Source of the DNA: Candidatus Eiseniibacteriota bacterium
Lineage (GTDB): Bacteria > Eisenbacteria > RBG-16-71-46
Assembly (NCBI GenBank): GCA_963707915.1
Contig: OY970178.1
Span: 1,632,001 to 1,696,000 of the forward strand
DNA: 64,000 nt
Direction: 5' to 3'
In this document: positions 21,942-62,753 of the stretch, piece after piece
How the letters are laid out: the number at the start of each line of letters is the position of its first letter
Numbering within the stretch: the stretch's first letter is position 1
Made by a program: the position numbers and the translations under genes
The notes under the pieces: model-generated
Database searches by the model: none
The model's input: the letters and a program-made list of their open reading frames with translations, nothing else
What the model was told of the DNA's origin: nothing

Positions 21942-22012
21942 GGCACCTCTCCCAGGATGGTGGGTCTGATGACGGCCGGATCCAACGCCGGCCGTGGTTC
22001 CTGCTTCCTTCG

Positions 22013-23256
22013 CTACCCCTCGGGGAACAACGTGTCGAGCACGCCGGCGTCCGGCGGGATGAGCCGCGGCTCGCCGGCCGTCTTCATGGCCGAGGCCACG
22101 TCCTTGAGCCCGTTGCCGGTGATGAGCGCCACGACGCGCCAGGCCGGGTCCACCAGGCCCTGGCGCACGGCCTCCTTCAGCCCGGCCCAGCGCGGCGGCC
22201 GCCGCGGGCTCGGCGAACACGCCGGCGCCGCGCGCCACCTCGCCGATCGCGGCCAGGATCGCGGCGTCGCTCACCGTGACGCCGAAGCCGCCCGACTCGC
22301 GGATCGCCTTCACGGCCGCGTCGCCGTCGCGCGGCAGGCTCACCGAGATCGAGTCCGCCACGGTGTCGCCGGACACCGGCCGGATCACGCCGTCGCCGGC
22401 CGCGGCCTTGACGATCGCCGCGCTGCCCTCGGCCTGCACCGCCAGCAGCCGGGGCGTGCGCTCGATGAAGCCCAGGCGCTGGAACTCGACGAAGCCCTTC
22501 CAGACGCCCGAGAGGATGTTGCCGTCGCCGACCGGCACGACGACCAGGTCCGGCACCTGCCAGTCCAGCTGCTCGCAGAGCTCGAAGGAGACGGTCTTCT
22601 TGCCCTCGCGCGTGTACGGGTTGAATCCGGTGTTGCGGTTGTACCAGCCGAAACGGCGCGTGGCCTCGAGACAGAGATCGAAGGCCTGGTCGTAGGTGCC
22701 GTCCACCGCCAGCACCTCGGCACCGAAGGTCAGCAGCTGCGCGATCTTCGCGCGCGGCGCGGTCTTCGGCACGAAGATGCGCGTGCGGATGCCCGGCGCG
22801 GCGGCGAGCACCGCGGTCGCCGAGGCGGCGTTGCCGGTCGAGGCCCCGGTCACCAGCGTGCACCCGAGCTCCTGCGCGCGCTTGAGCGCGACCGAGCTGG
22901 CGCGACACTTGAACGAGGCGCTGGGATTGCGGCCGTCGTCCTTGAGCAGCAGCGGCCGGGCGAGCCCGAGCTCCCGCGCGAGCCGCGGCGCCTCGACCAG
23001 CGGCGTCCAGCCCACCGGCGGCCCGTCGAGCCGGGCGCTCACCGGCAGGAGCGGCAGGTAGCGCCAGATCGTGCGGTCGCCGCTCTTCGCGAGCGATTCG
23101 CGCGACCAGCTCTTCCTCACGACGTCGAGGTCGTACTCGACCAGCGTGTTCGCGCCGCAGTCCGGGCAGACGTAGCGGTCGTCGGCGACCGGCGCGAGCC
23201 GGCCGCAGGCGACGCAGCGCAGGCCGACCGCGTTGCCCCGGCCGCGGCCCGCTCAC
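22013..23256 (-). CDS. Threonine synthase-like fold-type II PLP enzyme with N-terminal Zn ribbon; frameshift near 22190 and probably near the start
   Basis: CVACG..CPDCG, IWRYLPLLP, GWTPL, NPSASFKCR, ASTGN, EGKKT, VPVGDG, AEPAAA; after the frameshift LITGNGLKD. Confidence 0.85.
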
Positions 23257-24204
23257 GCCACGATCCAGGTGCCCGACTTGCCTTCCAGCGCGGGCACGAG
23301 GTGCTGCGGGTCGGTGATCAGCGCCTGCTTGCCGCCCGACTCGAGGAACTCGATGATCGCCTCGATCTTGGGCTTCATGCTGCCCGGCGCGAAGTGGCCC
23401 TCGGCCAGGTACTTCTTCGCCTCGGCCAGGGTCATGCGGTCGATGTCCTTCTGGTCGGGCTTGCGGAAGTTGAGGCAGACCTTCTCGATCGCGGTCGAGA
23501 TGATGAGCAGGTCGGCCTTCAGGTCGCGCGCCAGCAGGCTGGTCGCGAGGTCCTTGTCGATCACGGCCGCCGCGCCCTTCAGGTGCCCCTTCTCGTCCTC
23601 GACCACCGGGATGCCGCCGCCGCCCACCGCGACCACCACGATGTCGTTCTCGAGCAGCCGGCGGATGGCCTCGAGCTCGATGATCGGCATCGGCTTCGGC
23701 GAGGCCACGACGCGGCGGAACCCGCGCCCGGCGTCCTCGACGATGTCCCACTTGTCCTTCTGCCGGTGCTCGTTCGCGGTCTTCTCGTCCATGAAGGAGC
23801 CGATCGGCTTCGACGGCTTCTTGAAGGACGGATCGTTGCGGTCCACCAGCACCTGCGTCACCACGGTGGCGACCACCGGGGGCCTGCGGCCAGTCCTTCA
23901 TCTCGTTGTACATCGCGCGCTGCACCTGGTAGCCGATCGCCCCCTGGGTGTCGGCACCGCACGAGTCGAGCGGCACCTGGTGCAGCTCGTGGGCCGCCAG
24001 CTCGCTGCGCCGCAGGATGAAGCCGACCTGCGGGCCGTTGCCGTGGGTCACGACGACGCGGTAGCCCGACTTGACCAGCCCCGCGATGTGCCGGCAGGTC
24101 TCCTCGACCGCGGCGTACTGGTCCTCCACCGACTTGTGCGACTCGTCCAGGATCAGCGAATTCCCGCCCACCGCGAGGATGGCGAGCTTCTTCTCGGTCG
24201 TCAT
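23253..24204 (-). CDS. arcC: Carbamate kinase; frameshift in a C-run near 23880
   Basis: AVGGNSL, THGNGPQVG, TQGAIGY, then PSKPIG, RRVVASP, GGGGIPV, AVIDKD, FAPGSMKPK. Confidence 0.93.
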
Positions 24205-25785: not shown

Positions 25786-25946
25786 CCAATGGCTCCTTTT
25801 CGGCGGAGTTTTCGGGTTTCGGAGGGACCAAGGACAATAGCCGAGGCCGCTGCCGCAGGGCAAACGCGGGGACCGCACAAGTCCTTGACGTCGCATGGCC
25901 GAGGGGCGCGGGCCCGTCCCCCCGCGCGGAGGTCGGGGACGCCGGT

Positions 25947-25976
25947 TTGAACGCGGACCCGCGCAACGGGTACGAT
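25947..25976 (+). promoter_or_regulatory. Possible sigma-70 promoter for the ygeW-like operon
   Basis: TTGAAC-N18-TACGAT in the divergent intergenic region. Confidence 0.4.
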
Positions 25977-26119
25977 GCGCGGCCGACTTCCTGACGGTGG
26001 CCGTCAGCGGCTTGTTTCTCCCTCGAGCGCGGCGGCCACGACGATGCCATCCGCCATTCCGAGGCGCCGGCCGGGACCTTCGAGGGGTCCGCCGGCTCCC
26101 GCACCCAGAAGGAGCCTGC

Positions 26120-27265
26120 ATGAGCCCCGTGACCTCCCTCCCGCCGGTCCCCGACCGCGCCGCGCTCGACGCCCTCTTCGGCCGCAGCATGCTGCTGACG
26201 CGCGACTGGACCACGCCCGAGCTCGAGACCCTGATGGCGGTGATCGGTCGTTTCGCCGGGCTCGACTACGCCGGCAAGTCCACCGCGCTGTTCAAGGACG
26301 AGCTGGGCTGGGCCCTGTTCTTCGACCAGTCCACCCGCACCAAGTCGGCCTGGGCCGGCGCCTGCGCACGCCTCGGCCTGGACCCGGTCATCGTCGACGG
26401 CAGCAGCACGCAGGTCTCGCACGGCGAGACCGCGGTCGAGACCGGCGCGATGCTGGGGATGAACGCCCACGCCCTGGGCGTGCGGCACGATCTCATCATC
26501 GGCGAGGGCAACCGCTTCATGCGCGACGTCAAGCAGGGCATCGACGACTACCTCGCCGCGATCCGGGACCCGCGCCGGGTGCCGGTCGTGAACCTGCAGT
26601 GCGACATCGACCACCCCACGCAGACGATGGCCGACCTGATGTGGATGCGCGAGTGCAACCCCGGCGGCCTCAAGGGCAAGAAGATCGCCATCTCCTGGGC
26701 CTACTCGCCCTCGTACGCGAAGCCGCTCTCGGTGGCGCAGGGCTGCTCCATGCTCTTCACCCGCTTCGGCGCGGAGGTCGTCCTCGCCCATCCCCAGGGC
26801 TACCACCTGATGCCCGACACCATGGAATTCGCCGCGGCCAGCGCGAAGGCCTCGGGCGGCTCGTTCAAGGTGGTGAACTCGATGGACGAGGCCTTCCAGG
26901 GCGCCGACATCGTCTATCCCAAGTCGTGGGGCCCCTACGACCTCATGCTGGAGCGCGTCGCGGCCAACAAGGCGAAGGACAAGGCGCGGCTGGGCGAGAT
27001 CGAGAAGGCGGCGCTGGCGGGCAACGCGAAGCACAAGGACTGGATCTGCGACGAGCGGCGCATGGGACTCACCCGCGGCGGGAACGCGCTCTACATGCAC
27101 CCGCTGCCCGCGGACATCGGCGACGAGGTCTCGCACGGCGTGATGAAGCAGCACACCGTCAACGTCGCGCGCCAGGCCCAGTACAAGATGTACGCGATCA
27201 TGGCGCTGCTCTCGGTGGCGAAGGTCCCGAACCTCGCGCAGCGGCTGGAAGCCCTCGGGAAGTAG
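26120..27265 (+). CDS. ygeW: YgeW-like (knotted) carbamoyltransferase
   Basis: STRT, SHGET, LQCDIDHPTQ, WAYSPSYAKPLSV.QG, YPKSW, MHPLPADI; AAGGAG RBS. Confidence 0.82.
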   Translation: MSPVTSLPPVPDRAALDALFGRSMLLTRDWTTPELETLMAVIGRFAGLDYAGKSTALFKDELGWALFFDQSTRTKSAWAGACARLGLDPVIVDGSSTQVSHGETAVETGAMLGMNAHALGVRHDLIIGEGNRFMRDVKQGIDDYLAAIRDPRRVPVVNLQCDIDHPTQTMADLMWMRECNPGGLKGKKIAISWAYSPSYAKPLSVAQGCSMLFTRFGAEVVLAHPQGYHLMPDTMEFAAASAKASGGSFKVVNSMDEAFQGADIVYPKSWGPYDLMLERVAANKAKDKARLGEIEKAALAGNAKHKDWICDERRMGLTRGGNALYMHPLPADIGDEVSHGVMKQHTVNVARQAQYKMYAIMALLSVAKVPNLAQRLEALGK

Positions 27266-28838: not shown

Positions 28839-28869
28839 TCTGGCAGGGCGGGACCGGCGGGGCCGCGGC

Positions 28870-28896: not shown

Positions 28897-28989
28897 TGGA
28901 AGGTGGACGAGTACGGCCGGGCCGGTGGCGAACCGGGCGGCCGTCCCGTCCGGCGGCCGCTGCGCCGCCATCGTCACGGGGGGCACGAC

Positions 28990-30548
<1,559 letters not shown>

Positions 30549-30550
30549 GG

Positions 30551-32240
30551 TCAGGCCGCCTCGTCGAAGAGCACGAAGGAGTCGAGCGCCGGGGTGACGA
30601 GCTGCTTGCGGATCTCGAGGTCGAAGTGCGTCTCCTCGCGCGCCAGGTCGTCGGCCGCACTGCCGCCGACCGCGCGGACGAGCGCGCGCCCGGTGGTGGC
30701 GTGGAACAGCACCTCGACCGGCGAGCTGCCGCCCAGCCGGCTGCTCACCAGCGGGATGTTCTCCTTCTCGAGGAAGTCCCGGATGAACTGGGCGTTCTTG
30801 CGGGGCACTTCCGGGCTCAGCCCGACGCGCGCCAGCACGTGGGCGGCCCCGAAGGCCTTCGCCTCGAGGCGCCGGCGGTCCCCGCCCAGCTTGGCGATGT
30901 CGTTGATCAGCATCTCCATGGCGTTCACTCCGTAGCGGGTGGGCAGCTCGGCGTCGGCCAGTCCGTCGGGCAGCATGAAGTGGTTGATGCCCCCGATGCG
31001 CGCCACCGGATCGAAGAGGCAGGCGCAGACGCAGGAGCCCAGCACGGTGCGCAGCTCGACCGGCTCGGCGCTCGCCCGCACCCCGCCGATCGTGACGTGG
31101 ATGCGCGCGGACCGCGGCCCGGCCGCCACAGCGGCCGCGGCCCGCGCCGGTCCGACCCGCCGGCCGCTCGCCTCGGCCAGGGCGCGGCGCGTCCCGGGCG
31201 GCAGGTGGATGCGGCCCGCCCGCCCGGCGGGAGCGGGCACGGCGTCCGTCCCGGCCGCGCCGGCGCACTCCGCAGCGGTCGCGGGCGCGGGCCCGGCGGC
31301 CACGGCCGGGCCGCCCGCCGCGACCCGTCCGGTGCGCTCGGCCGCGCCGCGCAACCGGTAGATGGTGCCCCGCAGCGGCTCGAACACGTGCATGTGGGAC
31401 TGCAGGCTCTCCGAGTGCCCGAGGAACAGGTACCCGCCCTCCGCCAGCCGCTCGGCGAACGACTCGACGATCGTCTTCACCGTCTCCCGGTCGAAGTAGA
31501 TCAGGACGTTGCGGCAGAAGATGAGGTCGAACGGGCCGGGCACCCGCCACGGCTTCTCGATCAGGTTGAAGCGGCGGAAGGTGACCAGGTCGCGCAGCTC
31601 GCTCTTGACCCGCGCCATGCCGCCGTTCGCGCCCGAGCCGCGCTGGAAGAACCGCTTGCGCAACTCGGCCGGCACCGGCTGGAGGAGATCGATCGGGGTA
31701 GACCCCCTGCTGGGCACGCGCCAGCACCTGCGTGTCGAGATCGGTCGCGAGGATCTCGAAGCTCCACCCGGCCGGGTTCTCGAACCCCGAGAGCAGGGTC
31801 ATCGCCAGCGTGTAGGGCTCCTCGCCCGACGAGCAACCGGCGCTCCAGATGCGCAGTCGCCTCGGCCCGCCCCTCAGGCTGCGCTCGCGGAGCTCGGGGA
31901 AGACCCGGGTCCTCATGAAGTCGAAGTGGTGGGACTCGCGGAAGAAGTCGGTCTTGTTCGTGGTGATGCAGTTGAGCATCTCCCGCAGCTCGCTGCCGTC
32001 CGGGTCCTGCTTCGTCACCCGCTCGAAGTACTGCCGGTAGCTGTGCAGCCCCAGCGCGCGCAGGCGGCGGGCGAGACGCGAGGCCACCAGCTGCTTCTTC
32101 GAGTCGTTGAGCGTGATGCCCGCCTGCTCGAGGATCAGCTTCCGGAAGGCATGGAACTCGGCGTCGTTGATCGCGAAGCCGCCGGGAGGCGCGACCGATC
32201 CCCCGGCGTCGGACGCGTCAGAGGTGTCGTGTGCGGTCAT
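30551..32240 (-). CDS. cheR: CheR methyltransferase fused to CheD deamidase; frameshift in a C-run near 31700 within CheR
   Basis: TTNKTDFFRE, WSAGCSSGEEPY, FCRNVLIYFD, FLGHSESL, Ala-rich linker, then TVLGSCV..NHFMLP..EAKAFG with no stop between the domains. Confidence 0.85.
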
Positions 32241-32331
32241 CCGCGGTCTCCAGGACGGGGAAGCGCCTCCAGGCGACGGGCTGCGGCCGGCCGGGGACGC
32301 GCGGTCGTCGGGCCGCGCGCCCCCGCCGGTC

Positions 32332-33197
32332 TCAGTACTCCTCGAAGCCCTTCTCCCACTCGTTGCCACCCTGCGCCGGCGCCACGGCCTTCGCCACCGG
32401 TCCCGCCGCCGCGCGCTTCTCCGGCCGCCCGCCGCCCGCCTTCGCCGCCGTCCGCGCCACCGCCCCCTTGGTCCCCTGCCCGCCCAGCTTGAAGCGCGAC
32501 ACCAGCGTCTGCAGTTGCTCCGCCTGGCTCGCCAGCCCCTCCGCCGTCGCGTTCAGCTCCTCGGTCTGCGACGCGTTCGACTGCGTCACCTGGTCCATCT
32601 GCGTCACCGCCTTGTTCACCTGGTCGATCCCCGACGACTGCTCCCGGCTCGCCGCCGCGATCTCCGACACGATGTCCGTCACCCGCTTCACCGACGTCAC
32701 GATCTCGCTCAGCGTCTGTCCCGACTGGTTCACCAGCTCCGTCCCGCCCTCCACCTTCCGCACCGAGTCCTGGATCAGGTTCTTGATCTCCTTCGCCGAC
32801 GTCGCCGAGCGCTGCGCCAGGTTCCGCACCTCGGTCGCCACCACCGCGAACCCCCGCCCCTGCTCCCCCGCCCGCGCCGCTTCCACCGCCGCGTTCAGCG
32901 CCAGCAGGTTGGTCTGGAACGCGATCTCGTCGATCGTCCCGATGATGTCCGCGATCTGCTTCGACGACTGGTTGATCGCCGCCATCGCCTCCACCGCCGT
33001 GCTCACCACCCGCCCGCCCTTCTCCGCCACCTCCCGCGACCCGTTCGCCAGCTGGTTCGCCTGCTGCGCGTTGTCCGCGTTCTGCTTCACCGTCGAGGTG
33101 ATCTCCTCCAGGCTCGCCGCCGTCTCCTCCAGGCTCGACGCCTGCTCCTGCGCCCCCGACGAGATCTGCCCCGCCCCCGCGCTCAGCTGCTGCGAGG
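32332..33197 (-). repeat. Near-identical MCP signalling-domain DNA, copy A
   Basis: Matches 38222..39087 with only about 5 substitutions seen by eye; about 700 bp shared with 36481..37179. Confidence 0.92.
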
Positions 33198-33999
33198 AGT
33201 CCCGCACCGCGAGTGCCGACTGCGCCACCTCGCTCATCACCCCGCGGATGGACGTCACCGCCAGGTCGAGGGAGCGCGTCATGCGCCCGAGCTCGTCCGA
33301 CGAACGGTCCTCGATGTGGGCGCTCAGGTCGCCCTTGGCGAGCTCCGCGATGGCCTTCTCGACGCCGGCGATCGGCGTGGTGATGCTCCGCGCCAGCGAG
33401 AGGCCGAACAGCAGGTACAGCACGCCCAGCACGACGGAGGCGATGAGCAACCCGCGCCGGCCCGTGTTGACGACCGCCCGGGTGTCCGCACTCGCCTTGT
33501 CCGCCTCGTGCTTGACCAGCTCTTCCAGGGCCTCGTTGGGCGCACGGTCCTGCCCCTTGACCATCTTGTCCGAGGTCGCCGGGTCCTGCCCGCCGCCCGC
33601 GGCGAACGCCTTCAGCGAGGCGCGGTAGCCCTCGCCCATCGTCCGGTGCGCACCGGCGAACTTCTCGAGCAGCGCAGCGGTGGCGGGGTCGTTTGCGGCC
33701 TTGATCAGGGTCGCCGCGGAGTCCTGGACCGCCTTCTCCTCGGCGAAGAAGGCGTCGCGGTGCTTGGCGTAGGCCTCGGGATCGCTGCCCCGGAGCAGGA
33801 TGTTCTTCCACTCCTGGACCTGCGTCTTCAGGTGCACCTGCATGGCGCGCGTCCCGTCCTGCGTGGTGGTCTCGCTCGCGAACAGGGCGAAGCCGCTCTC
33901 GAACGTCCACAGCATCCATCCGCCCATCAGGACGGTCATGACCAGTCCGACCACCACGAGCAGGCCCAGCCGCTTGCTGATGTCAATCTTCCTCAACAT
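32332..33999 (-). CDS. Methyl-accepting chemotaxis protein 1 (periplasmic sensor, HAMP, C-terminal GFEEY pentapeptide)
   Basis: Two TM helices, [12 protein letters not shown] sensor, [30 protein letters not shown]. Confidence 0.96.
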
Positions 34000-34008
34000 G
34001 GCACCCTC

Positions 34009-35727
34009 CTAGAACGAGAGGACGAGTTGGAGGTAGCCCCAGTCGAGGTCCTCACCACCGCCCGTGTTGTCGACGAAATCACCGATCCACAGGTGCGACC
34101 AGCCGCCCGCCAGGCCGAGCCGCGGACGCGGGTCCCACTTGAAGCCCAGGTCGAGCTCCGTGCCGAGGTCCACGCCCGCCGTGCCGGCCGCGGAGCGGCG
34201 CAGCGTGTTGCCCGCGTCGTCCGCCCAGGCGTCGCGCGCCTGCATCAGGCGGAAGCGGTGGAGCTCGGCGCTGGCGCCCCACGACTTGCGCGGCTGCACG
34301 CCGATCACCGCGTTCCAGTCCACGACGTTCGCGCAACCCACCACGTCGAGCGTGCCGAGGTAGCCGTGCCCGCCCCAGTACACCGGGTCGTAGCGCTGGC
34401 TCCTGCCGTCCACCGGGTCCCGGTCGCCCGAGGCGCCGATCCACTCCGTCTGCACCCGCGGCTTCCACCCGCCGGGCAGCTCCATCGCGACGCGCACCGC
34501 GCCGAACCACGCGTCGACGTCGTCGCCGGCGCGGTGGCCGCGCTGCAGGGCCCCTTCGCCGCGGACGTCGAGGCGGCCGCTCGCCAGCCGCAGCCGCAAC
34601 CCGCTGGTGGCGTCGCGGAGGCTGCCCTTCCGCCCGGCCTCCGAGGTGACGCCCGAGTCGCCGAACGAGCGCGCGAAGCTGTAGAGCTCGGCCTCGATCG
34701 TCTTGGAGGGCTTCCAGAGGGCGTCGACGCCCGTGAACAGGCGGTCGCTGCCGGTCAGCCGACCCTCGGAGATCCACGCGAACAGCCCGTCCAGCTGCCA
34801 TTGCTTCGGGGTGAGACGCAGACGCGCGCCGTCCCAGGCGCGGCCCGAGTTCCCCCAGTCCGAGCCGGCGACCACGCGGCCGTCGCCGTACTGGAACACC
34901 TGGCGGCCGATGCGCAGCGCGACCGGGCGGCGCCCGATGCTGTCGACGTCGGCGTAGGCCGTGTACAGGTCCACGTTCGCGAAGGTGCCACCGGGCGAGC
35001 CCGTGGCACCCATGACGCGGGCGTCCTGCAGGCCGAAGTAGCCCTTCACGCCGGGGCCGAGCTTGAAGCCTCCGCCGAAGCGGGTCCGCATCAGCGACTG
35101 GTCGCCGCTCTCGAGCAGCTTCTGCGAGGACGCCCGCTTGTACGATCCGGGCATCCGGTAGTCGAGGATGGAGCGCGCCTCGTAGCGGAAGCGCATGCTG
35201 CCTTCCCAGGCGATCGGAGCCATCGCGGTCGCGAGGGAGGCCGCCCCGGCACTCCCCCCCGGCAGGGTCCTCGGCGGCGCGGCGTCCAGTACCACGTTCG
35301 CCGGGGCGGGGCGCGCCTCCGAGGGCGGGGGCGTGACCGCCGCGACCTGCGTGCCGGCGCCGGGCGCCGCGTCCCCCGCGGGAGCGGACGGCGCCGACGC
35401 GGCGACCGGCGCCGCCGGCTCGGACGGGGCTGCGACGACCGTGGACGCGACGGGCTCGGACGGAGCCGTCGCGGCGGCGGCCGACGAGACGGTCTCCGGC
35501 GCGGCCACCGGGGCCGGCGACGCGGGGGCGTTCAGGGTGGTCACCTTCGCGTGGTGCACGCGGTGCATGGGCCGGCGGTGGGTCACCGGCGCGGCCTTCT
35601 TCGGCGTCACCACGGCTGGGACGGGCTTGGGGGGCGGCGGCTTCAGGTCGTACTCACCCGCCGACGCCAGCGACGCTCCCACCAGCAGCGCCACGGCCAC
35701 CACATCGATCGTCCTGAAGGGACGCAT
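34009..35727 (-). CDS. Alginate export (AlgE-like) outer-membrane beta-barrel with a Pro/Ala-rich N-terminal linker
   Basis: Signal peptide, RFRYE, LQDARV.G, DLYTAY, RIGRQVFQYGDGRVV..DWGN..RAWDG, ASGD, LGTELDL, C-terminal YLQLVLSF. Confidence 0.82.
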   Translation of the reverse strand: MRPFRTIDVVAVALLVGASLASAGEYDLKPPPPKPVPAVVTPKKAAPVTHRRPMHRVHHAKVTTLNAPASPAPVAAPETVSSAAAATAPSEPVASTVVAAPSEPAAPVAASAPSAPAGDAAPGAGTQVAAVTPPPSEARPAPANVVLDAAPPRTLPGGSAGAASLATAMAPIAWEGSMRFRYEARSILDYRMPGSYKRASSQKLLESGDQSLMRTRFGGGFKLGPGVKGYFGLQDARVMGATGSPGGTFANVDLYTAYADVDSIGRRPVALRIGRQVFQYGDGRVVAGSDWGNSGRAWDGARLRLTPKQWQLDGLFAWISEGRLTGSDRLFTGVDALWKPSKTIEAELYSFARSFGDSGVTSEAGRKGSLRDATSGLRLRLASGRLDVRGEGALQRGHRAGDDVDAWFGAVRVAMELPGGWKPRVQTEWIGASGDRDPVDGRSQRYDPVYWGGHGYLGTLDVVGCANVVDWNAVIGVQPRKSWGASAELHRFRLMQARDAWADDAGNTLRRSAAGTAGVDLGTELDLGFKWDPRPRLGLAGGWSHLWIGDFVDNTGGGEDLDWGYLQLVLSF

Positions 35728-35854
35728 TCCGACACTCCTACGGTTGAGCGCGGAACTCGCCGCGCCGGCCTTCCCGACTCGCCGCCATCGCTCGCGCCCG
35801 CCCGCTCGACCGGGCCCGGCGACCTGCGCGGACGACCCTCCCGGTGCCCGCCGG

Positions 35855-36346
35855 TCACGCGGCGAGGTTCTTCTCCAGCGTCTCTTTCCCCAGCAGTTCC
35901 TCGATGTCCAGCAGCGCGATCAGCCGCTCCGCCGTCTTCGCCATCCCCTTCAGGTAGGTGATGTCCGCGCCGCTGCCCAGGTCGGGCCGCGGCTCGATGT
36001 CGTTGCCCGGGATGTCCAGCACGTCCGAGACCGCGTCCACGACCAGCCCGAACACCTTGGATCCGACCGTCACCACGATCACCACCGTGAACTGGTCGTT
36101 CTCCGTCGCGGGCATCCCGAGCCGCGCCCGCAGGTCCGCCACCGGCACGACCGTCCCGCGCAGGTTCATCACCCCGCGGACGAACGCAGGCGCGTTCGGG
36201 ATCGGCGTCGGAGGCGTGTATCCCTTGATCTCCTGCACCTTCAGGATCTCGATCCCGTACTGCTCCTGCCCCAGCATGAAGGTCAGGTACTGGTGCACGT
36301 CGTCGTCGAACACCCCACCGGTGTTCCGCGACAGTCCCATGTCCAT
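35855..36346 (-). CDS. cheW: CheW coupling protein
   Basis: [40 protein letters not shown]. Confidence 0.95.
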   Translation of the reverse strand: MDMGLSRNTGGVFDDDVHQYLTFMLGQEQYGIEILKVQEIKGYTPPTPIPNAPAFVRGVMNLRGTVVPVADLRARLGMPATENDQFTVVIVVTVGSKVFGLVVDAVSDVLDIPGNDIEPRPDLGSGADITYLKGMAKTAERLIALLDIEELLGKETLEKNLAA

Positions 36347-36460
36347 CGTCGTCTCCTTCTCCGCGGCCTGCCGCGAGCTGGAATGTGCCGGGCCCGTCCC
36401 CCGTCGTGGCCGCGGCCACGGGCACGGTGGGCGGGGCGCCTCGCCGACGTCCTTGTTCCG

Positions 36461-38026
36461 CTACGCCTGTGCGTCCAGCCTGAAGCGCGACACCAGCGTC
36501 TGCAGCTGCTCCGCCTGGCTCGCCAGCCCCTCCGCCGTCGCGTTCAGCTCCTCGGTCTGCGACGCATTCGACTGCGTCACCTGGTCCATCTGCGTCACCG
36601 CCTTGTTCACCTGGTCGATCCCCGACGACTGCTCCCGGCTCGCCGCCGCGATCTCCGACACGATGTCCGTCACCCGCTTCACCGACGTCACGATCTCGCT
36701 CAGCGTCTGCCCCGACTGGTTCACCAGCTCCGTCCCGCCCTCCACCTTCCGCACTGAGTCCTGGATCAGGTTCTTGATCTCCTTCGCCGACGTCGCCGAG
36801 CGCTGCGCCAGGTTCCGCACCTCGGTCGCCACCACCGCGAACCCCCGCCCCTGCTCCCCCGCCCGCGCCGCTTCCACCGCCGCGTTCAGCGCCAGCAGGT
36901 TGGTCTGGAACGCGATCTCGTCGATCGTCCCGATGATGTCCGCGATCTGCTTCGACGACTGGTTGATCGCCGCCATCGCCTCCACCGCCGTGCTCACCAC
37001 CCGCCCGCCCTTCTCCGCCACCTCCCGCGACCCGTTCGCCAGCTGGTTCGCCTGCTGCGCGTTGTCCGCGTTCTGCTTCACCGTCGAGGTGATCTCCTCC
37101 AGGCTCGCCGCCGTCTCCTCCAGGCTCGACGCCTGCTCCTGCGCCCCCGACGAGATCTGCCCCGCCCCCGCGCTCAGCTCCCGGGACGCGGTGGCCAGCG
37201 CCAAGGCCGAGCCGCGCACCTCCTGCAGCGAGCCCCTCATCCGGTCGACCGCGCGATCCAGCGCGGCCGCCATGCGGCCCACCTCGTCGCGCGTGTCGAT
37301 CGCCAGGCGCTCGGTGAGGTCGCCTTCGGCCACCTGCTCGAGCACGGCGGTGGCGCGGGCGATCGGGCGGGCCACCTGCTCGGCGATGAGCACCCCGAGC
37401 CCGAGCCCCCCGGCGATCGCCGCCGCGATGAGCACGAGGAGGGCCGCCCGCGTGCGGCGGGCGGCCGCCGCGCTCGACGCCACCCGGCTCTTCATCGCCG
37501 CGCGCAGGTCCGTGTCCAGCTCGGCGAGCGCCTTGCGCATGTCGCCCGCCGCCGAGCGATTGCCCGCCATGATGGTCTTCGCACCCTCGAGATCACCCGC
37601 GGCCGAGCGGCGGCTGATGTTCCGCACGTCCTGGCTCCAGCCGGCGAAGAGCTCCGAGACGCGGGCCACGAGCGGGGTCTGCGTGGTGGTGAGCTTCGCG
37701 CCGCCGAGGACCGCGAGACCGTCGGACGCGATCTGGAGCGCGGCGTCGGCGTCCTGGACGCTCTTCTGCGCGGCCTCCGTGCCGGGGAACAGCATCGCGT
37801 TGCGGAAATGGCGGCCCGCGTCGTTGAGGCCCGCCTTCACGTCCGCCGTCGCCGTGATGAGCGGGAAGTCCCGCTCCTGGATCTGCGCGGATGCGAGCTC
37901 CTGCCCGGCCATCCCGCGGACCGACAGGCCACCGACCAACGCCGTCAACCCTGCCGCCAGCGCGAAGGCGACCAGCAGCTTCGCCCTCATCTGGAGGTTC
38001 TGGAACCACCGCGCGGCCCATCGCAT
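36461..38026 (-). CDS. Methyl-accepting chemotaxis protein 2 (no C-terminal pentapeptide)
   Basis: Start MRWAARWF with GGAGGG RBS; two TMs, HAMP, conserved hairpin tip. Confidence 0.95.
36481..37179 (-). repeat. Near-identical MCP signalling-domain DNA, copy B
   Basis: Matches about 32490..33188 with a few synonymous changes. Confidence 0.9.
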
Positions 38027-38221
38027 CTCAGCTCTCCCTCCTGCGCCCGCGCGGATGTGAGGGGCCGCCGGGGCATCCGTTCCGCCGGGCGCGCCCACGG
38101 AGCGCCTCACTGCCGCTCCGCCGGCGGGGCGGCCGCACCGCGCCGTCCCCCGCGCCCACTCCTCGACCGCCGGGCGACCCTCCACGCGGTCGCCCCCGGG
38201 CCGTACTCGTTTCCGCCGCTC

Positions 38222-39087
38222 TCAGTACTCCTCGAAGCCCTTCTCCCACTCGTTGCCGCCCTGCGCCGGCGCCGCGGCCTTCGCCACCGGTCCCGTCGCC
38301 GCGCGCTTCTCCGGCCGCCCGCCGCCCGCCTTCGCCGCCGTCCGCGCCACCGCCCCCTTGGTCCCCTGCCCGCCCAGCTTGAAGCGCGACACCAGCGTCT
38401 GCAGCTGCTCCGCCTGGCTCGCCAGCCCCTCCGCCGTCGCGTTCAGCTCCTCGGTCTGCGACGCGTTCGACTGCGTCACCTGGTCCATCTGCGTCACCGC
38501 CTTGTTCACCTGGTCGATCCCCGACGACTGCTCCCGGCTCGCCGCCGCGATCTCCGACACGATGTCCGTCACCCGCTTCACCGACGTCACGATCTCGCTC
38601 AGCGTCTGTCCCGACTGGTTCACCAGCTCCGTCCCGCCCTCCACCTTCCGCACCGAGTCCTGGATCAGGTTCTTGATCTCCTTCGCCGACGTCGCCGAGC
38701 GCTGCGCCAGGTTCCGCACCTCGGTCGCCACCACCGCGAACCCCCGCCCCTGCTCCCCCGCCCGCGCCGCTTCCACCGCCGCGTTCAGCGCCAGCAGGTT
38801 GGTCTGGAACGCGATCTCGTCGATCGTCCCGATGATGTCCGCGATCTGCTTCGACGACTGGTTGATCGCCGCCATCGCCTCCACCGCCGTGCTCACCACC
38901 CGCCCGCCCTTCTCCGCCACCTCCCGCGACCCGTTCGCCAGCTGGTTCGCCTGCTGCGCGTTGTCCGCGTTCTGCTTCACCGTCGAGGTGATCTCCTCCA
39001 GGCTCGCCGCCGTCTCCTCCAGGCTCGACGCCTGCTCCTGCGCCCCCGACGAGATCTGCCCCGCCCCCGCGCCCAGCTGCTGCGAGG
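38222..39087 (-). repeat. Near-identical MCP signalling-domain DNA, copy C
   Basis: Direct repeat of 32332..33197 at offset 5890. Confidence 0.92.
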
Positions 39088-39913
39088 CCGAGGCCACCGC
39101 CTGGCTGGCCTGCGCCACCTGCTGCATGTTCTCCTCGAAGACCTTCATCATGACGTTGAGCTGCTCGCCCATCTGCCCGAGCTCGTCCCTGGACGTCACG
39201 TTCACCCGCACCGTCAGGTCGCCGGTCGCCGCGGTCGTCGCCCGCTCGACCACGTGCATCAGCGGGCCGGTGATGGCGCGCGAGATCATGAAGCCGAGGA
39301 AGATCGACAGCAGCACCGTCACCGCGAGGAACGCGACCAGCATGCCTCGCGTGCGCTGGAAGTTCTGGCTCTGCGCGACGGCTTCCCGCTCCATCGCGGC
39401 GGTCTTGTTGGCGAGGATCTTCTCCAGGTCGTCGTTGGCCGCCTGGGCGTTGGCCTTGTTGGCCGTCACGCTCTCCAGGCCCTTGAGGCTCTCGTTGGCC
39501 AGCGACTGGGCCCACGCCGCGTCGTTCCCGCTCTTCCAGGCGTCGTACGTCTTGCGCGTGTCGGCCATGATCGCCTTGACCTCGTCGCTGACCAGGCACT
39601 TCTCACCCTCGTCCAGGCTCTTCGCGAGCTGGACGGACAGCTCGTCGTACTTCTTCTTCTCGGCCTGCACCTCGGCCGGGTCGGTGGCGAGCAGGCTCTG
39701 CGCGGTCAGGGTGCGCATGCTGTTGAACGCGATCCCGGCCTGCGCGAAGGTGCGCACGCCCTCGAAGTGCATGGTCTTGACCGTGTCGAAGCGCTTGTCC
39801 TCCTTCGACAGCGAAGTGACCGCGACCAGGCCGACCGCCAGGGTCAGCAGGGCGACCGTCAGGAAGCCTCCCACCAGCTTCTGCCCGACCTTCAGGTTGT
39901 TGAACCAGTTCAT
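38222..39913 (-). CDS. Methyl-accepting chemotaxis protein 3 (4-helix-bundle-like sensor, GFEEY pentapeptide)
   Basis: [13 protein letters not shown] start, two TMs, HAMP, conserved tip. Confidence 0.96.
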
Positions 39914-39947
39914 CGTCCTATCCTCCCTGGAATCGTCCGGGCCCTCT

Positions 39948-40436
39948 TCAACGGGCGACTGCCATCGGGCCGAGTGCGTCCTCGCCGATGAGCTTGTCGA
40001 TATCGAGCAGCGCGATCAGCTTGTCGTCCGACTTCGCCATCCCGGTCATGAACGAGGTGTCCACGTCCCGGCCCAGCGCGGGCGTGGCCTCGATCGCCGC
40101 GCGCGGGATGTCCAGCACGTCGGAGACCGCGTCCACCACCAGGCCGAACACCCGCGTGCCGACCGTCACCACGATCACCACGGTGAACCGGTTGTACTCG
40201 GCCTCGCTCATCGCGAACTTGGTGCGCAGGTCCACCACCGGCACCACCGTCCCGCGCAGGTTGATCACGCCCTTGATGTAGGCCGGCGCGTTCGGGATCG
40301 GCGTGAAGGCGGTGTACCCCTTGATCTCTTGCACCTTCAGGATCTCGATGCCGTACTCCTCGGCGCCGAGCGTGAAGGTGAGGAACTGGTTGCCGTCCGC
40401 TCCGGTCCCGGAGACGTCCTGCCCGGCTCTCTCCAT
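39948..40436 (-). CDS. cheW: CheW coupling protein
   Basis: [34 protein letters not shown]. Confidence 0.95.
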
Positions 40437-40531
40437 GTCCTTGTCCCTTCGTCTAGAGGCGGCCCACGTGCGGCACGGAGGTCCGGGCACGAGCGCAAGC
40501 GCAGGCCCGGGCCAGCCCTGCCCATCCCGGA

Positions 40532-40558
40532 GTGTCGCCACGGCGGGCACGTCCTTGA
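40532..40558 (-). promoter_or_regulatory. Sigma-28-like promoter of the cheW-mcp-..-cheB unit
   Basis: TCAAG-N14-GGCGACAC on the minus strand. Confidence 0.55.
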
Positions 40559-40691
40559 GCGGACGGAGCGGCCGTCGTGCAATCCGCACGACGACGCCGG
40601 GTCGGCAGGCGGGGGACGGCACCGGGGAACGCGAATCTCTGGCGTCGCGGGAGCCCCGGGGTCTACCATGGTGTCCAGGAAGGAGGACGCC

Positions 40692-41012
40692 ATGGACATC
40701 GCCGGCTACGACCAGACGCTGGAGCAGCTCCGGTCCCGCATCGCCGCGCTGCCCCCCGAAGCGCGCGCCGCGCTCGAGTCGCTGGCGGACGAGACCGCCG
40801 CGCGCCAGCGGGAGATCGCCGCGACGCACGCCGAGACGCTCGGGCTCGCCCGGGACTACGACGCGGCGGCCGCGCGCTTCCGCGACGCCGCGGCCCGCAT
40901 GGCGGGCTCGACGGCGCACGTGCTGGACAAGATCCAGGACGCTCTCATCGATCTCAACTTCGTCGCCCTGGACCTCGAGTCGCGCAACCGCGAACGGGGC
41001 GGTCCCCGCTAG
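40692..41012 (+). CDS. Small helical/coiled-coil hypothetical protein (106 aa)
   Basis: AGGAGG RBS, ATG MDIAGYDQ, GC-rich third positions; convergent with cheA. Confidence 0.7.
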   Translation: MDIAGYDQTLEQLRSRIAALPPEARAALESLADETAARQREIAATHAETLGLARDYDAAAARFRDAAARMAGSTAHVLDKIQDALIDLNFVALDLESRNRERGGPR

Positions 41013-41027: not shown

Positions 41028-43073
41028 TCAGCGGGCCGAGGCGGCGAGCTCGGCCCCGGCGCCTGCCGCCGCGCCCGCCCCTTCGGCGGGAGCCTCCGCC
41101 TCGTTCTGGCGCCGGGTGGCGATGCGGTGCAGTTCCACCACGTCCATGATGAGCGCGACCCGGCCGTCGCCCATGATGGTCGCCCCCATGACGGCGTCCA
41201 CCTTGCGGTAGTTCTGCTCCAGGCTCTTGATGACGACCTGGGACTGCCCGAGCACGTCGTCCACCAGCACCCCGAAGCGGCACTCGTCCGACTCCAGCAC
41301 CACGACGATGCCCTGGCACGGATCGGTCACCGCGCCGGAGACGCCCAGCAGACGGTCCAGCCGGAGCAGCGGGACCTGCTCGCCCCGCAACAGGAAGATC
41401 TCGCCGCGTCCGCCCAGCACGGTCTTGACCTCGCCGGGCGCCGGGCGCACCGATTGCGCGATGGCCAGCAGCGGGATGATGAACACCTCCCGGCCCACCT
41501 GGATCGACAGCCCGTCCAGGATGGCCAGCGTCAGCGGGATGCGGATGCGGAACCGGCTGCCCTGTCCCGGGACGCTCGACACGACGATCGCGCCGTTGAG
41601 CGCCTCGACGTTGCGCTTCACCACGTCCATGCCCACGCCGCGTCCCGAGACGTCGGTGACGACGGCCGCCGTGGAGAAGCCGGGGCGGAAGAGCAGCGCG
41701 TGGATGTCGTCGTCGGAGAGCACCGCGTCCGGGCGCACCAGGTCCTGGGCGACGGCCTTCGCCCGGATGCGATCCCGGTCGAGACCCTTGCCGTCGTCCG
41801 CGATCTCGATGACGACGTTGCCGCCCTCGTGGAACGCACGCAGGCGCACGACGCCCTCCTCGGGCTTGCCGCAGCGGGCCCGCTCCTCGGGCGATTCGAT
41901 GCCGTGGTCCACGGAATTGCGGATGAGGTGCGTGAGCGGATCGCCGAGCCGCTCGATCACGCTCTTGTCGAGCTCGGTGTCAGCGCCGGAGATGTCCAGG
42001 CGCACGCGCTTGCCCAGCGACAGGGCCAGGTCGTGCACGGTCCGCGGGAAGCGGTTGAACACCGACCCCACGGGCAGCATGCGGATGGACATCACGCGTT
42101 CCTGCAGGTCCCGCGTGCTGCGCACCACCATGCCCAGGGCCTCCTGGATCTGGATCAGGCCCTCACCGGTCATGCGCGTCGCGACCTGGCTCACCATGGC
42201 CTGGGCGATGACCAGTTCGCCCACCAGGTTGATGAGCCCGTCCACCTTCTCGGTGGGCACACGGATCGACGACGCATCGGCCTGGCGCCGGTTCGCGTGT
42301 TCCCCGGCGGATGCCGGCGCGGCCGGCGACGACGCGGTGGCGGCGGACGCCGCGGCGGTGTCCGGCACGAGCCGGATCGTGAGGTCGCAGGCGTCCTCGA
42401 CGAACATGAAGACGTCGCGGACCACCGCCTCGCTGGCCACGCCCCGCAACCGGTACGTCCACGACAGGTGACAGGCCTCGGGGTCCAGCGCCTCGAGCGC
42501 CGGGAGCCGGGACCGGTCGCAGTTCACCTCGATCACCTCGCCGAGGTCGGCGATCTCCCGCAGCAGGAGGAGCACGTCCTGCCCCTGCCCGAAGAAGCCC
42601 GAGTGCGGCCGGAAGCTCACTTCGCACACGGAGCCGGCGGCCGCCCCCGCCGCGGCGGGAGCCGGGGCCGGCCCGGCCGGCGCCGGCTCGACGGCGAGCC
42701 TGGCCTCCAGCTCGGCCACGGTCTCGTCGATCGGGACGGTCCCGGCCTGTTCGGCCCGGGTCGCCTCGACCAGGGCGCGCAGCAGGTCGGTCGCCTTGAG
42801 GAGCAACGCCGTGAGCGCGGGCTCCACCGCGAGCCGGCCGCCGCGCAGGCGGTCGAGCACGTTCTCGAGCACGTGGGTGAGGCGCGCGATCTCGGTGAAG
42901 CCGAAGCTGCCGCTGCCCCCCTTGATCGAGTGCGCCGCGCGGAAGATGGTGTTCAGCAGCTCGGGATCGGCCCCGCGGGTCTCCAGGTCAAGCAGCCCGG
43001 ACTCCATGGTGGCGAGATGCTCGTAGGCCTCCTCGAAGAAGGTCTCGTGGAAGCGCTTGAGGTCCACCTTCAT
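41028..43073 (-). CDS. cheA: Chemotaxis histidine kinase CheA
   Basis: IFRAAHSIKG (Hpt), HLIRNSVDHGIE, DDGKG, GFSTA..SGRGVGMDVV, CheW-like P5 domain. Confidence 0.97.
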   Translation of the reverse strand: MKVDLKRFHETFFEEAYEHLATMESGLLDLETRGADPELLNTIFRAAHSIKGGSGSFGFTEIARLTHVLENVLDRLRGGRLAVEPALTALLLKATDLLRALVEATRAEQAGTVPIDETVAELEARLAVEPAPAGPAPAPAAAGAAAGSVCEVSFRPHSGFFGQGQDVLLLLREIADLGEVIEVNCDRSRLPALEALDPEACHLSWTYRLRGVASEAVVRDVFMFVEDACDLTIRLVPDTAAASAATASSPAAPASAGEHANRRQADASSIRVPTEKVDGLINLVGELVIAQAMVSQVATRMTGEGLIQIQEALGMVVRSTRDLQERVMSIRMLPVGSVFNRFPRTVHDLALSLGKRVRLDISGADTELDKSVIERLGDPLTHLIRNSVDHGIESPEERARCGKPEEGVVRLRAFHEGGNVVIEIADDGKGLDRDRIRAKAVAQDLVRPDAVLSDDDIHALLFRPGFSTAAVVTDVSGRGVGMDVVKRNVEALNGAIVVSSVPGQGSRFRIRIPLTLAILDGLSIQVGREVFIIPLLAIAQSVRPAPGEVKTVLGGRGEIFLLRGEQVPLLRLDRLLGVSGAVTDPCQGIVVVLESDECRFGVLVDDVLGQSQVVIKSLEQNYRKVDAVMGATIMGDGRVALIMDVVELHRIATRRQNEAEAPAEGAGAAAGAGAELAASAR

Positions 43074-43080: not shown

Positions 43081-43440
43081 CTACCCTCTCTCCGGCGCGG
43101 CGACCGCCGGCCGTTCGCCGCCGATGACCCCCGCGAGCCCGACGACGCGCAGGGTGTCCTCGACCGACGGGGCCATGGCCACCACCTTGAGGCTGCGTCC
43201 GCGCGCTGCGAGCTCCGCGCCCAGCGCGAGCAGCACCTGCAACGCGGCGCCGTCCAGGTACTCGGCGCGGGCGAGGTCGAGCGTCACCGTCCCGGTCCCG
43301 GCGAGCGCGGCCAGCGCCCCCTCCTTGAGCCGGCGCGCCAGCGCCGCGTTGATCGTGCCCTCCAGGCACAGGCGCCGCTGCGCGCCGTCCTCGTCGACCC
43401 GGATCGGCTGCACGGCTCCCTCCCTCGCGCTCGTCACCAT
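43081..43440 (-). CDS. STAS domain protein
   Basis: L.LEG.I..LK..VTLDLARAEYLDGAALQVLL..LRVVGL. Confidence 0.85.
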   Translation of the reverse strand: MVTSAREGAVQPIRVDEDGAQRRLCLEGTINAALARRLKEGALAALAGTGTVTLDLARAEYLDGAALQVLLALGAELAARGRSLKVVAMAPSVEDTLRVVGLAGVIGGERPAVAAPERG

Positions 43441-43452
43441 CGGGGCCCCCTC

Positions 43453-44817
43453 CTAGAACAGCACGTCATCCACGGCCTGGGCGGCGGCGCCCACCGCGGA
43501 GGCCTCGGCGGGGGCGGTCGCCCCGCTCGCCGGGCTCGCGGACGGCGCCTCCCCGACCAGGTCGGTGTCGCCCTTCACCACGCGCAGCCCGAGGCTGAAC
43601 ACCTGGTCGTCGAGGCAGCGGAACACGGTCCGGAGGTCGGCGGGCGCCTCCCCGACCTCCTCGGTCACCACCTCGGGCAGCCCCATCTTGAGGTCGAACC
43701 CGCGCGAGTGGAGACCGGCGCGGATGCGGCCGGCGATCGTGTTGACCAGCTCGTAGAGCACCTCGGAGCTGCCGTCCTCGAAGGTGCTCTCCCGGCGCAG
43801 CACCTGGGAGCCGATCTTCTCCGCCTGGGCGCGGCCGATGAGCATCTCGGTGTGGAGGGTGGCGCCGCTCTCGGCGTCGCGCAGGGTGACCCGCGCGCAC
43901 ACGCCGGTCGGGCACTCGACGCCCTTCTGCTCCTCCTCGCCGTAGGCCAGGACCTCCTTGCCCATCATCACGCCCATGGTCTGCTGGGTGGCCGTGACGA
44001 GCTCCTTGCGCAGGCCCTCGCGCACCAGGTGGCGCAGCTTCTCGAGCGTGTTCTGGTCGCGCAGCACGACCCGGCGGAACTCCTCGAGGAACTGCTCGGG
44101 GACGAACGACTTGCGCACCACGCCCGCGTAGCGCGCGGCCTTGGCGGCCTCCACGTCCGAGTTCGAGAACAGGAAGATCTGCGGCGGGGTCGAGCCGTCC
44201 TGGATGGACATCTTGCGGATGACGTCCGCCAGCACGTCCTCGCCCATGAGCGGGAGCCCCTCCGCCAGGCACACCAGGCTGGGCTTCACCGTCGCCTCGC
44301 GGAAGCGGACGGCCGCCTGCGTGCTCGAGGAGACGTCGGTGACGTCGAACTCCTGGTCGAGGAGCGGCCGCGCGAAGGCCAGGAAGTTGGGGTCGGCGTC
44401 CACCATGAGCAGGGTGTTGAAGGTCCCGCCCTCGCGGCGCTGGCGCCACTGGGTCGAGCGCAGCATGACGCTCTTGAAGCGCGGCAGCGCGTCGACCGGG
44501 TTGATGGGCTTGAGCATGTAGTCGACGACGCCGAGCCCCAGCATGCGCGTCACGTTCTCCTTGGTGCTCGACGCCGAGACGCAGATCACCGGCACGTCGG
44601 CCCGCTGGGGCGACTGGCGGATGGCGCAGAGCGCCTCCAGCCCGCTCAGGATCGGCATCTCGATGTCGAGCACCAGGAAGTCGGGGTCCACCAGCTCGAG
44701 CTGCTGGAGCGCCGACAGGCCGTTGTCCGCCTCCACCACCTCGACGTTGAGGTGGCTGAGGAGGCGCTTGATCACCGCTCGCGAGATGCGGTCGTTGTCG
44801 ACGACGAGGGCCTTCAT
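43453..44817 (-). CDS. Receiver + pseudo-receiver + CheX-like phosphatase domain protein
   Basis: REC1 LDIEMP..KP; REC2 lacks the acceptor Asp (CLAEGLP); C-terminal ELVNTIAG (ExxN) and MGLPEV. Confidence 0.75.
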   Translation of the reverse strand: MKALVVDNDRISRAVIKRLLSHLNVEVVEADNGLSALQQLELVDPDFLVLDIEMPILSGLEALCAIRQSPQRADVPVICVSASSTKENVTRMLGLGVVDYMLKPINPVDALPRFKSVMLRSTQWRQRREGGTFNTLLMVDADPNFLAFARPLLDQEFDVTDVSSSTQAAVRFREATVKPSLVCLAEGLPLMGEDVLADVIRKMSIQDGSTPPQIFLFSNSDVEAAKAARYAGVVRKSFVPEQFLEEFRRVVLRDQNTLEKLRHLVREGLRKELVTATQQTMGVMMGKEVLAYGEEEQKGVECPTGVCARVTLRDAESGATLHTEMLIGRAQAEKIGSQVLRRESTFEDGSSEVLYELVNTIAGRIRAGLHSRGFDLKMGLPEVVTEEVGEAPADLRTVFRCLDDQVFSLGLRVVKGDTDLVGEAPSASPASGATAPAEASAVGAAAQAVDDVLF

Positions 44818-62748: not shown

Positions 62749-62753
62749 GCGGC

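Follow-up and report, generated by a model that had tools for sequence, protein, structure and literature searches.

The barrel gene and its position in the chemotaxis operon

The 64,000-nucleotide stretch of DNA analysed in this study (the window) originates from a Candidatus Eiseniibacteriota genome (contig OY970178.1, positions 1,632,001 to 1,696,000) and carries on its minus strand a chemotaxis operon that includes a gene for a predicted outer-membrane beta-barrel protein. The open reading frame (ORF) of the barrel protein, 34009..35727 (−), starts with ATG, ends with TAG and codes for 572 amino acids. It is located between a cheW gene, 35855..36346 (−) (Pfam CheW, E 1.5e-42; NCBIfam CheW, E 2.5e-41, under the cut-off of the model), and a gene for a methyl-accepting chemotaxis protein (MCP), here designated MCP1, 32332..33999 (−). 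The spacer on the cheW side, 35728..35854 (−), has a length of 127 nt, with a GGAG motif 8–11 nt before the ATG of the barrel gene. The spacer on the other side, 34000..34008 (−), consists of only 9 nt (gagggtgcc), after which the ATG of MCP1 follows, and a Shine-Dalgarno motif (GGAGG) overlaps the TAG stop of the barrel gene. A first-pass annotation, made from the sequence alone, had described a signal-peptide AlgE-like barrel between cheW and an MCP gene on the same strand, 9 nt before the latter, and translation, Pfam and structure prediction agree with it. The coordinates it had assigned, 33999–35855, bracket the ORF, with the start codon of the MCP gene at one end and the stop of cheW at the other.

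The window has a G+C content of 71%, and long spurious ORFs are therefore common. The barrel ORF is nevertheless regarded as a real gene because of its G+C content by codon position (0.71/0.58/0.95), which matches neighbouring genuine genes, its match to a Pfam family and its homologues. In a search of 5.8 billion proteins, 20 homologues were found at E ≤ 1e-19; the closest ones stem from metagenome-assembled genomes named Candidatus Eisenbacteria by their sources. The Pfam match is to Alginate_exp (PF13372), with an E-value of 6.2e-46 and 157.4 bits (cut-off 25.2), and covers residues 232–557 and profile positions 53–386 of 395. This was the only family reported by Pfam at E ≤ 0.01, and no membership in OprD was found; an NCBIfam scan gave no match. 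The barrel gene is the single Alginate_exp gene of its genome, a single contig of 3.62 Mb with a completeness of 94.8%, in which neither Porin_4 nor Porin_O_P found a match.

The protein begins with a signal peptide, MRPFRTIDVVAVALLVGASLASA, residues 1–23 at 35659..35727 (−), which was read from the translation and ends with A-S-A before G24. The leader GEYDLK directly past the cleavage site is common to the window protein and the homologues P0002 and P0003 in the alignment. Residues 24–170, encoded at 35218..35658 (−), form a region of 147 residues that is rich in Ala and Pro (27% A, 20% P and 11% V over residues 25–170) and has no Pfam match. Within it, at residues 50–59, 35551..35580 (−), lies the His-rich patch HRRPMHRVHH. 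The first-pass annotation had pointed out both the Pro/Ala-rich stretch and this patch. Both are present, but the patch is only semi-conserved: orthologues that have the enzyme domain described below, and those that lack it, show a basic His/Arg motif at this place in the alignment, with a varying number of His residues. The beta-barrel domain comprises the 402 residues 171–572 and is encoded, with the stop codon, at 34009..35217 (−). It ends in LQLVLSF; the terminal Phe and the signal peptide are the features expected of outer-membrane barrels. A cell envelope with two membranes is indicated by the presence of genes for FlgH (L-ring) and FlgI (P-ring) in the window.

Predicted fold of the barrel

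An AlphaFold2 model of residues 171–572, calculated with 88 aligned sequences, had a mean predicted local distance difference test score (pLDDT) of 95.2 and a predicted template-modelling (TM) score of 0.90, and contains 18 long strands. When the model was compared with known structures by Foldseek, AlgE was ranked first (TM 0.72–0.74, 12–13% identity). In a comparison with VIA-align, AlgE chains occupied ranks 1–12, with Z-scores of 32.5–34.8 and a root-mean-square deviation of 2.6 over 354 of the 402 residues, followed by OccK/OccD channels (Z about 27–29) and maltoporin (about 21). Model and structural ranking identify an AlgE-like fold with 18 strands, so that membership in PF13372 is found by profile and by fold. 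From the PDB, a sequence profile of the subfamily retrieved only carbonic anhydrases; AlgE was not among the matches at E ≤ 1. The window barrel is a distant member of Alginate_exp and not an orthologue of AlgE.

Outer-membrane barrels whose strands are even in number generally have both termini in the periplasm. The predicted number of strands is even, and the Ala/Pro-rich N-terminal region is therefore presumed to be periplasmic. In the alignment of the subfamily, 23 invariant columns are Arg, and alternating Arg patterns were found inside predicted strands (R179-x-R181-x-E183-x-R185, R214-x-R216, R302-x-R304 and R378-x-R380). For AlgE, PMC4118822 describes a pore with an electropositive ring of about ten basic residues that binds citrate. 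The Arg-rich strand positions of the window subfamily appear compatible with such a ring, and this likeness and the alternating invariant Arg residues suggest that the lumen of the barrel may be positively charged.

Conservation of the linkage to chemoreceptor genes

To our scan of the phylum 206 genomes were subjected, with a family member called at E ≤ 1e-20. A family member was present in 13 genomes and a close orthologue (55–100% barrel identity) in seven, namely the genome of the window (G000) and G005, G051, G052, G105, G114 and G115, all of which belong to one class of one phylum. A scan of metagenome contigs yielded four loci, three of them further orthologue fragments, and a scan of genome contigs one distant locus. 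An MCP gene is the direct neighbour of the barrel gene in 9 of the 10 orthologue loci (the seven genomes, L030 and L031); the tenth locus (L033) is a fragment of 1.5 kb without a match. These barrel-MCP loci span three genera, two families and at least two layouts. The genome of the window has 6 MCP genes in 3.62 Mb, and at about one gene per kb the chance that a random gene touches one of them is estimated at well under 1%. Conserved linkage, on which the first-pass annotation had made its interpretation depend, was hence observed.

The gene order differs between the loci. In G051 it is cheB-STAS-cheY-cheA-cheW-MCP(4HB)-[carbonic anhydrase-barrel]-MCP1-type-cheRD, and in G052 MCP-[barrel]-MCP1-type. 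G005, which belongs to the genus of the window, has MCP-cheW-MCP(4HB)-[carbonic anhydrase-barrel]-cheR. The order is [barrel]-MCP(sCache_2) in G105, G114 and L030, and MCP-[barrel] in G115 and L031. The orthologous barrel genes of genus g2 are found at 9242..11920 of L020 (G105) and 8320..10575 of L021 (G114), both given without strand.

The junction between the barrel gene and a following MCP1-type gene is tight in all three cases, with 9 nt in the window, 7 nt in G052 and −1 nt (a TGATG overlap) in G051. The sensors of the downstream MCPs in G051 and G052 are homologous to the MCP1 sensor (52% identity from residue 53; 41% over residues 1–301). Sensors of this type were detected in 4 of the 206 genomes. 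Three of the copies directly follow a barrel gene. The fourth, in G151, lies beside a SurA-like gene, and no barrel was found with it.

A direct comparison is provided by G050, a congener of G051. Its chemotaxis operon is colinear with that of G051 over 8 genes, but neither the barrel gene nor the MCP1-type gene is present, and only about 90 nt separate the MCP(4HB) gene from cheRD. The joint absence indicates that the two genes form one cassette. MCP genes were detected in 92 of the 206 genomes, and all seven barrel carriers are among these 92. In the genus of the window, MCPs occur only in G000 and G005, the same two genomes that have the barrel. The other genomes of this genus (G001, G002, G003, G004, G006 and G007; 6 of 8 in genus g1, with G000 counted) gave no MCPsignal match, some of them being 93–96% complete, and chemotaxis in genus g1 seems confined to G000 and G005.

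With 7 of 92 MCP-bearing genomes and an operon in G050 that does without it, the barrel gene is not regularly present in chemotaxis operons. It is an accessory and not a core component, in agreement with the first-pass annotation, which had not considered it a standard part of such operons. Literature searches, the coverage of which did not extend to subscription journals, retrieved no report of a chemotaxis operon with an Alginate_exp barrel.

A carbonic anhydrase domain in the nearest relatives

In 6 of the 20 closest homologues (P0003, P0004, P0005, P0006, P0008 and P0010), a Pro_CA domain follows the N-terminal leader and precedes the Ala/Pro linker. The barrel genes of G005 and G051 also carry Pro_CA (E 7e-38 and 5e-38, respectively). 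The fused domain is a beta-carbonic anhydrase that has kept the zinc-site motifs CxDxR and HxxC and matches PDB entry 1YM3 with an E-value of 6e-28. According to the alignment, the Ala/Pro region is the linker that ties this enzyme to the barrel in the nearest relatives. The first-pass annotation had viewed the region as a stalk; its composition was described correctly, but its nearest relatives show it to be the connection to a domain that was lost in the window protein.

An N-terminal module is missing in the window protein, P0002 and P0007. A maximum-likelihood tree was built on the barrel region, in which the grouping of the window protein carries starred support. Its topology is (P0004, ((P0005, P0006), (window, (P0002, P0003)))), with carbonic anhydrase in P0003, P0004, P0005 and P0006, and P0007 is the sister of P0008, which has the domain. 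As members without the domain are nested among members with it, carbonic anhydrase was lost at least twice, the window copy representing one of the losses. The window barrel shares 82% identity with the barrel of P0002 (no carbonic anhydrase) and 81% with that of P0003 (carbonic anhydrase). In the genome of the window no match to PF00484 was found, whereas 9 of 14 control genomes matched. No description of a fusion of carbonic anhydrase and barrel was retrieved in the same literature searches, with the same limit on coverage.

Members of genus g2 (P0011–P0014, G105 and G114) have a different N-terminal segment of about 350–500 residues before the barrel, which has no Pfam match.

The MCP1 receptor and its sensor

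MCP1 has 555 residues and was identified by Pfam MCPsignal (E 3.6e-57) and HAMP. Its sensor, residues about 32–188 at 33436..33906 (−), precedes HAMP and MCPsignal and is an all-helical four-helix bundle in the AlphaFold2 model (pLDDT 94.3). Pfam found nothing beyond noise in this segment at E ≤ 10, and Foldseek gave no match at E ≤ 0.001. The nearest Atlas clusters are 4HB_MCP_1/TarH, and the weak Foldseek matches are four-helix-bundle ligand-binding domains (PcaY_PP, MCP2201, Vc1313, Tsr and McpN). An E-W-K...L..G core is invariant among members of the sensor family, and Y, D and R are conserved at further positions. Neither the sensor family nor the model nor the Foldseek matches point to a particular ligand of MCP1. 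When residues 25–110 of the barrel protein were co-folded with two copies of the sensor (32–188), a score of 0.50 was obtained compared to 0.44 for the control, which counts neither for nor against an interaction.

In total, 75 proteins with this sensor were detected in several phyla, comprising MCPs, histidine kinases and one PP2C phosphatase. The family signature, including Y...D..VKGxDRAPT, is strongly conserved and is covered by no Pfam model.

Genes adjoining more distant family members

Eight more distant relatives with 28–43% identity were examined. The barrel genes of G107 (L024) and G118 (L025) lie beside nrfH-nrfA and that of G086 (L027) follows napA-napB. Genes for ATP-binding cassette systems with NMT1-type binding proteins adjoin the barrel genes of G038 (L029) and of a Victivallales contig, and on a metagenome contig hcp (for a hybrid-cluster protein) and a YgbA_NO gene precede the barrel gene. 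The contexts in G076 and G077 are unclear. In 6 of the 8 relatives (L024, L025, L027, L029, L006 and L032), the barrel gene thus adjoins genes for periplasmic enzymes or binding proteins whose substrates or ligands are small nitrogen oxyanions or related anions. Polysaccharide genes were found beside none of the eight. Among binding proteins of the NMT1 type are some that bind nitrate and some that bind bicarbonate. These contexts suggest that one branch of the family serves the entry of small anions for periplasmic enzymes and binding proteins. In the genome of the window, a weak match to NrfA (29.5 bits) and two molybdopterin enzymes of unassigned specificity were detected, and no anion is singled out by them.

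Comparison with known systems

The barrel shares its family (PF13372) and the monomeric barrel of 18 strands with AlgE of Pseudomonas aeruginosa (PDB 3RBH, 4AFK and 5D5D). It differs from AlgE by an identity of only 13%, by the Ala/Pro extension, which bears carbonic anhydrase in orthologues, and by the linkage to MCP and chemotaxis genes. AlgE is encoded in the alg operon, whereas the window barrel lies between cheW and an MCP gene. A Pfam scan of 43 ORFs around it in the window, among them the chemotaxis genes, found no family of glycosyltransferases or polysaccharide synthesis, in agreement with the first-pass annotation, which had noted no polysaccharide synthesis genes nearby. From this operon context it is concluded that the window barrel is not an alginate porin of the AlgE type. 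A search for ALGX in the genome of the window was silent, as were the controls, and is uninformative.

The second-best structural matches were OccD/OccK channels of the OprD family from Pseudomonas and Acinetobacter, which are likewise monomeric specific channels with 18 strands; entries with bound vanillate and glucuronate were among the matches. Channels of this type take up carboxylates and amino acids. They belong to a different sequence family and lack an N-terminal periplasmic extension, and we know of no linkage to chemoreceptor genes. By analogy, the window barrel would work most like an Occ-type substrate-specific channel.

The nearest functional precedent known to us for the mechanism proposed below is LamB maltoporin, an outer-membrane channel that helps the chemoeffector to reach periplasmic sensing in the maltose chemotaxis of Escherichia coli. 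The LamB channel forms trimers and conducts sugars; its gene belongs to the mal regulon and is not located beside a receptor gene, and the fold of LamB matches that of the window barrel less well (Z about 21).

For the N-terminal domain of the orthologues, the closest known protein is Rv1284 of Mycobacterium tuberculosis (1YM3), with which it shares the Pro_CA match and the zinc-site motifs. In contrast to Rv1284, the enzyme of the orthologues has a signal peptide for secretion and forms one polypeptide with an outer-membrane barrel; in the window protein it is absent.

Proposed role and alternative explanations

We estimate a probability of about 0.5 that the barrel is an anion-type outer-membrane channel functionally tied to periplasmic chemoreceptors. 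It probably works with a receptor and does not export polysaccharide. The barrel gene would be transcribed with the flagellar chemotaxis genes and translationally coupled to the following MCP1 gene. An open, anion-selective pore could let a small charged chemoeffector reach the four-helix-bundle sensors of MCP1 and of its operon neighbours. Candidate chemoeffectors would be bicarbonate-like or nitrate-like oxyanions and carboxylates. Alternatively, the barrel may condition the signal that reaches the receptors. In the nearest relatives the barrel would hold a beta-carbonic anhydrase, catalytically intact by its motifs, in the periplasm on the Ala/Pro tether; in the window copy the enzyme has been lost and tether and barrel were kept.

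The earlier interpretation of a dedicated porin-receptor pair that admits a specific chemoeffector is partly supported. The cassette behaviour (G051 versus G050) and the tight junctions are in line with it, but the type of receptor is not constant, and a strict pair of one porin and one receptor is too narrow. The passage of a specific chemoeffector through the barrel is what we infer for the channel, with the ligand left to the candidates named above.

Several results weigh against a channel serving chemoreceptors. As only 7 of 92 MCP-bearing genomes have the barrel, chemotaxis is independent of it. The neighbouring receptor is of the MCP1 type with a four-helix bundle in three loci, of the sCache_2 type in three further loci and of the 4HB_MCP_1 type, encoded upstream, in G005. 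G005 lacks an MCP1-type receptor, cheR directly following the barrel gene, and G151 has one without a barrel. This variation argues against a single fixed ligand, and the contexts of the distant relatives likewise point to several anions and not to one. Related genomes are not independent observations, and no statistic was attached to the counts for this reason. The genome of the window has no beta-carbonic anhydrase, and the idea of bicarbonate as the chemoeffector is weakest for the window copy. If the frame breaks in cheR-cheD and cheB described below are real, the chemotaxis system may be decaying. Furthermore, AlgE is, according to PMC4118822, an exporter with gates (L2 and T8) and depends on AlgK; it is not a free diffusion pore.

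A more specific proposal, which we put forward tentatively, is that barrel, tethered beta-carbonic anhydrase and the following four-helix-bundle receptor act together as a module dedicated to the sensing of inorganic carbon or of a planar oxyanion of similar kind. CO2 or bicarbonate would cross the outer membrane through or at the anion channel, the tethered enzyme would interconvert the two beside the receptor, and the receptor would steer flagellar motility. The window would then represent a derived form without the enzyme, in which the channel is still paired with a receptor. If true, neither an outer-membrane channel nor a carbonic anhydrase would have been known before as a signal-delivery part of a bacterial chemotaxis operon. 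The fusions provide a concrete lead to the sensing of CO2 or bicarbonate in an uncultured phylum of soil and sediment.

It is doubtful that the barrel acts mainly as an anchor that tethers periplasmic modules near chemoreceptors, with transport being secondary or absent and the cargo lost in the window copy. An anchor would account for the constancy of the barrel next to variable N-terminal modules, i.e. carbonic anhydrase in six homologues, the unannotated segment in genus g2 and none in the window protein, P0002 and P0007. Estimated from its length, the tether of about 147 residues is also long enough to cross the periplasm. After the loss of carbonic anhydrase on at least two occasions, however, the barrel is still 81–82% identical to its nearest relatives and has kept every invariant Arg and invariant loop residue, which is more conservation than an anchor needs. 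Moreover, relatives without an N-terminal module adjoin periplasmic enzymes that use anions.

We consider it unlikely that the protein is an ordinary diffusion or nutrient channel, placed next to MCP genes by shared regulation or as an inherited ancestral arrangement. Its rarity among MCP-bearing genomes, the different receptor types and the restriction to one class of one phylum fit such a channel. Uptake would also suit the place of the pair of barrel and sCache_2 receptor genes in G105 and G114 next to genes for aconitase and an MFS transporter; FIST and Pyr_redox_2 genes lie there as well. On the other hand, nine of ten loci, belonging to two families and showing at least two layouts, have the barrel gene adjacent to an MCP gene, the junctions measure 9, 7 and −1 nt, and barrel and MCP1-type receptor are gained or lost together. 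The barrel is also absent from all six congeners of the window genome that lack MCPs.

Che-like pathways control exopolysaccharide in some bacteria, and family and fold match AlgE, but a true AlgE-like exporter of anionic polysaccharide under such control is highly improbable, as synthesis families were absent from the 43 window ORFs and from the scanned ORFs of the orthologue loci, motA, motB and genes for flagellar structure lie next to the operon, carbonic anhydrase fusions and nap, nrf and NMT1 contexts do not fit the export of a polymer, and the profile search of the PDB missed AlgE at E ≤ 1.

A channel that serves periplasmic chemoreceptors would have consequences beyond this genome. Models of chemotaxis treat the outer membrane as transparent; a receptor-coupled channel gene that is gained and lost jointly with the receptor gene suggests that in some bacteria the outer membrane is where the access of signals to the periplasmic sensors is controlled. 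The Alginate_exp family, with 3266 representative clusters at E ≤ 0.001 and, to our knowledge, only one characterised member, would gain a likely second role in the passage of small anions for periplasmic enzymes, binding proteins and sensors.

Operon and flagellar surroundings

The remaining genes of the operon upstream of cheW were identified by Pfam. They include two MCP genes with 4HB_MCP_1 sensors, 36461..38185 (−) and 38222..39913 (−), a long cheW, 39948..40919 (−), and cheA, 41028..43073 (−). The complete order is a REC-CheX fusion, STAS, cheA, long cheW, the two 4HB MCPs, cheW, barrel, MCP1, cheR-cheD and cheB. The operon is preceded by motA and motB on the plus strand, which lie between it and the flagellar genes. 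The motility region on the minus strand has the order fliOPQ, fliR, flhB, flhA, flhF, flgF/G, flgH, flgI, flgN and flgK. No terminator-like or sigma-70-like sites were found on this strand from 28500 to 46500, which is weak evidence; the scan of this region returned 0 promoter-like sites, while its 4 terminator-like sites, compared to 3.7 expected by chance, were without exception on the opposite strand, and it is not informative. Among public sequencing runs, none of RNA was listed as containing the sequence, and ten DNA runs contained only a fraction of 0.05–0.15 of the sampled words.

The start of the operon, 43081..44817 (−), codes for a fusion of REC and a CheX-like domain with 454 amino acids and for a STAS-domain protein, followed by cheA. 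At the same place G051 has STAS and a single-domain CheY; the latter was not seen in the operon of the window.

Frame breaks in the assembly

The barrel gene, MCP1, both other MCP genes, both cheW genes and cheA are intact. The cheR-cheD fusion, 30551..32369 (−), is split over two frames, with a break near 31688 at a run of CCCC. According to Pfam, one frame contains CheR_N and CheR positions 1–88 and the other CheR 88–193 and CheD. In G051 the CheR-CheD fusion is intact with 522 amino acids, and the break in the window is probably an indel error. The cheB gene, 28974..30530 (−), extends over at least three frames, one with REC and positions 1–81 of the methylesterase and another, the ORF 29390..29773, with positions 90–136; the rest of cheB was not found. 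The breaks in cheR-cheD, cheB and flhA look like homopolymer errors of a long-read assembly, true pseudogenes being the alternative.

In the flagellar region 58395..60957 (−) and 62479..63975 (−), flhA appears as two ORFs that match FHIPEP positions 1–301 and 404–655. In the same region flhB was seen only from profile position 228, and the matches to FliO, FliP and FliQ share one ORF. These findings are further signs of indels or read-through in the assembly.

Beyond the chemotaxis operon, the ORF 20985..23120 (−) codes for 711 amino acids and combines a pyridoxal phosphate-dependent PALP domain with a complete aspartate/ornithine carbamoyltransferase. Near this fusion lie a second gene resembling a carbamoyltransferase (25895..27265) and a stretch that partly matches an amino-acid kinase (23253..23876).

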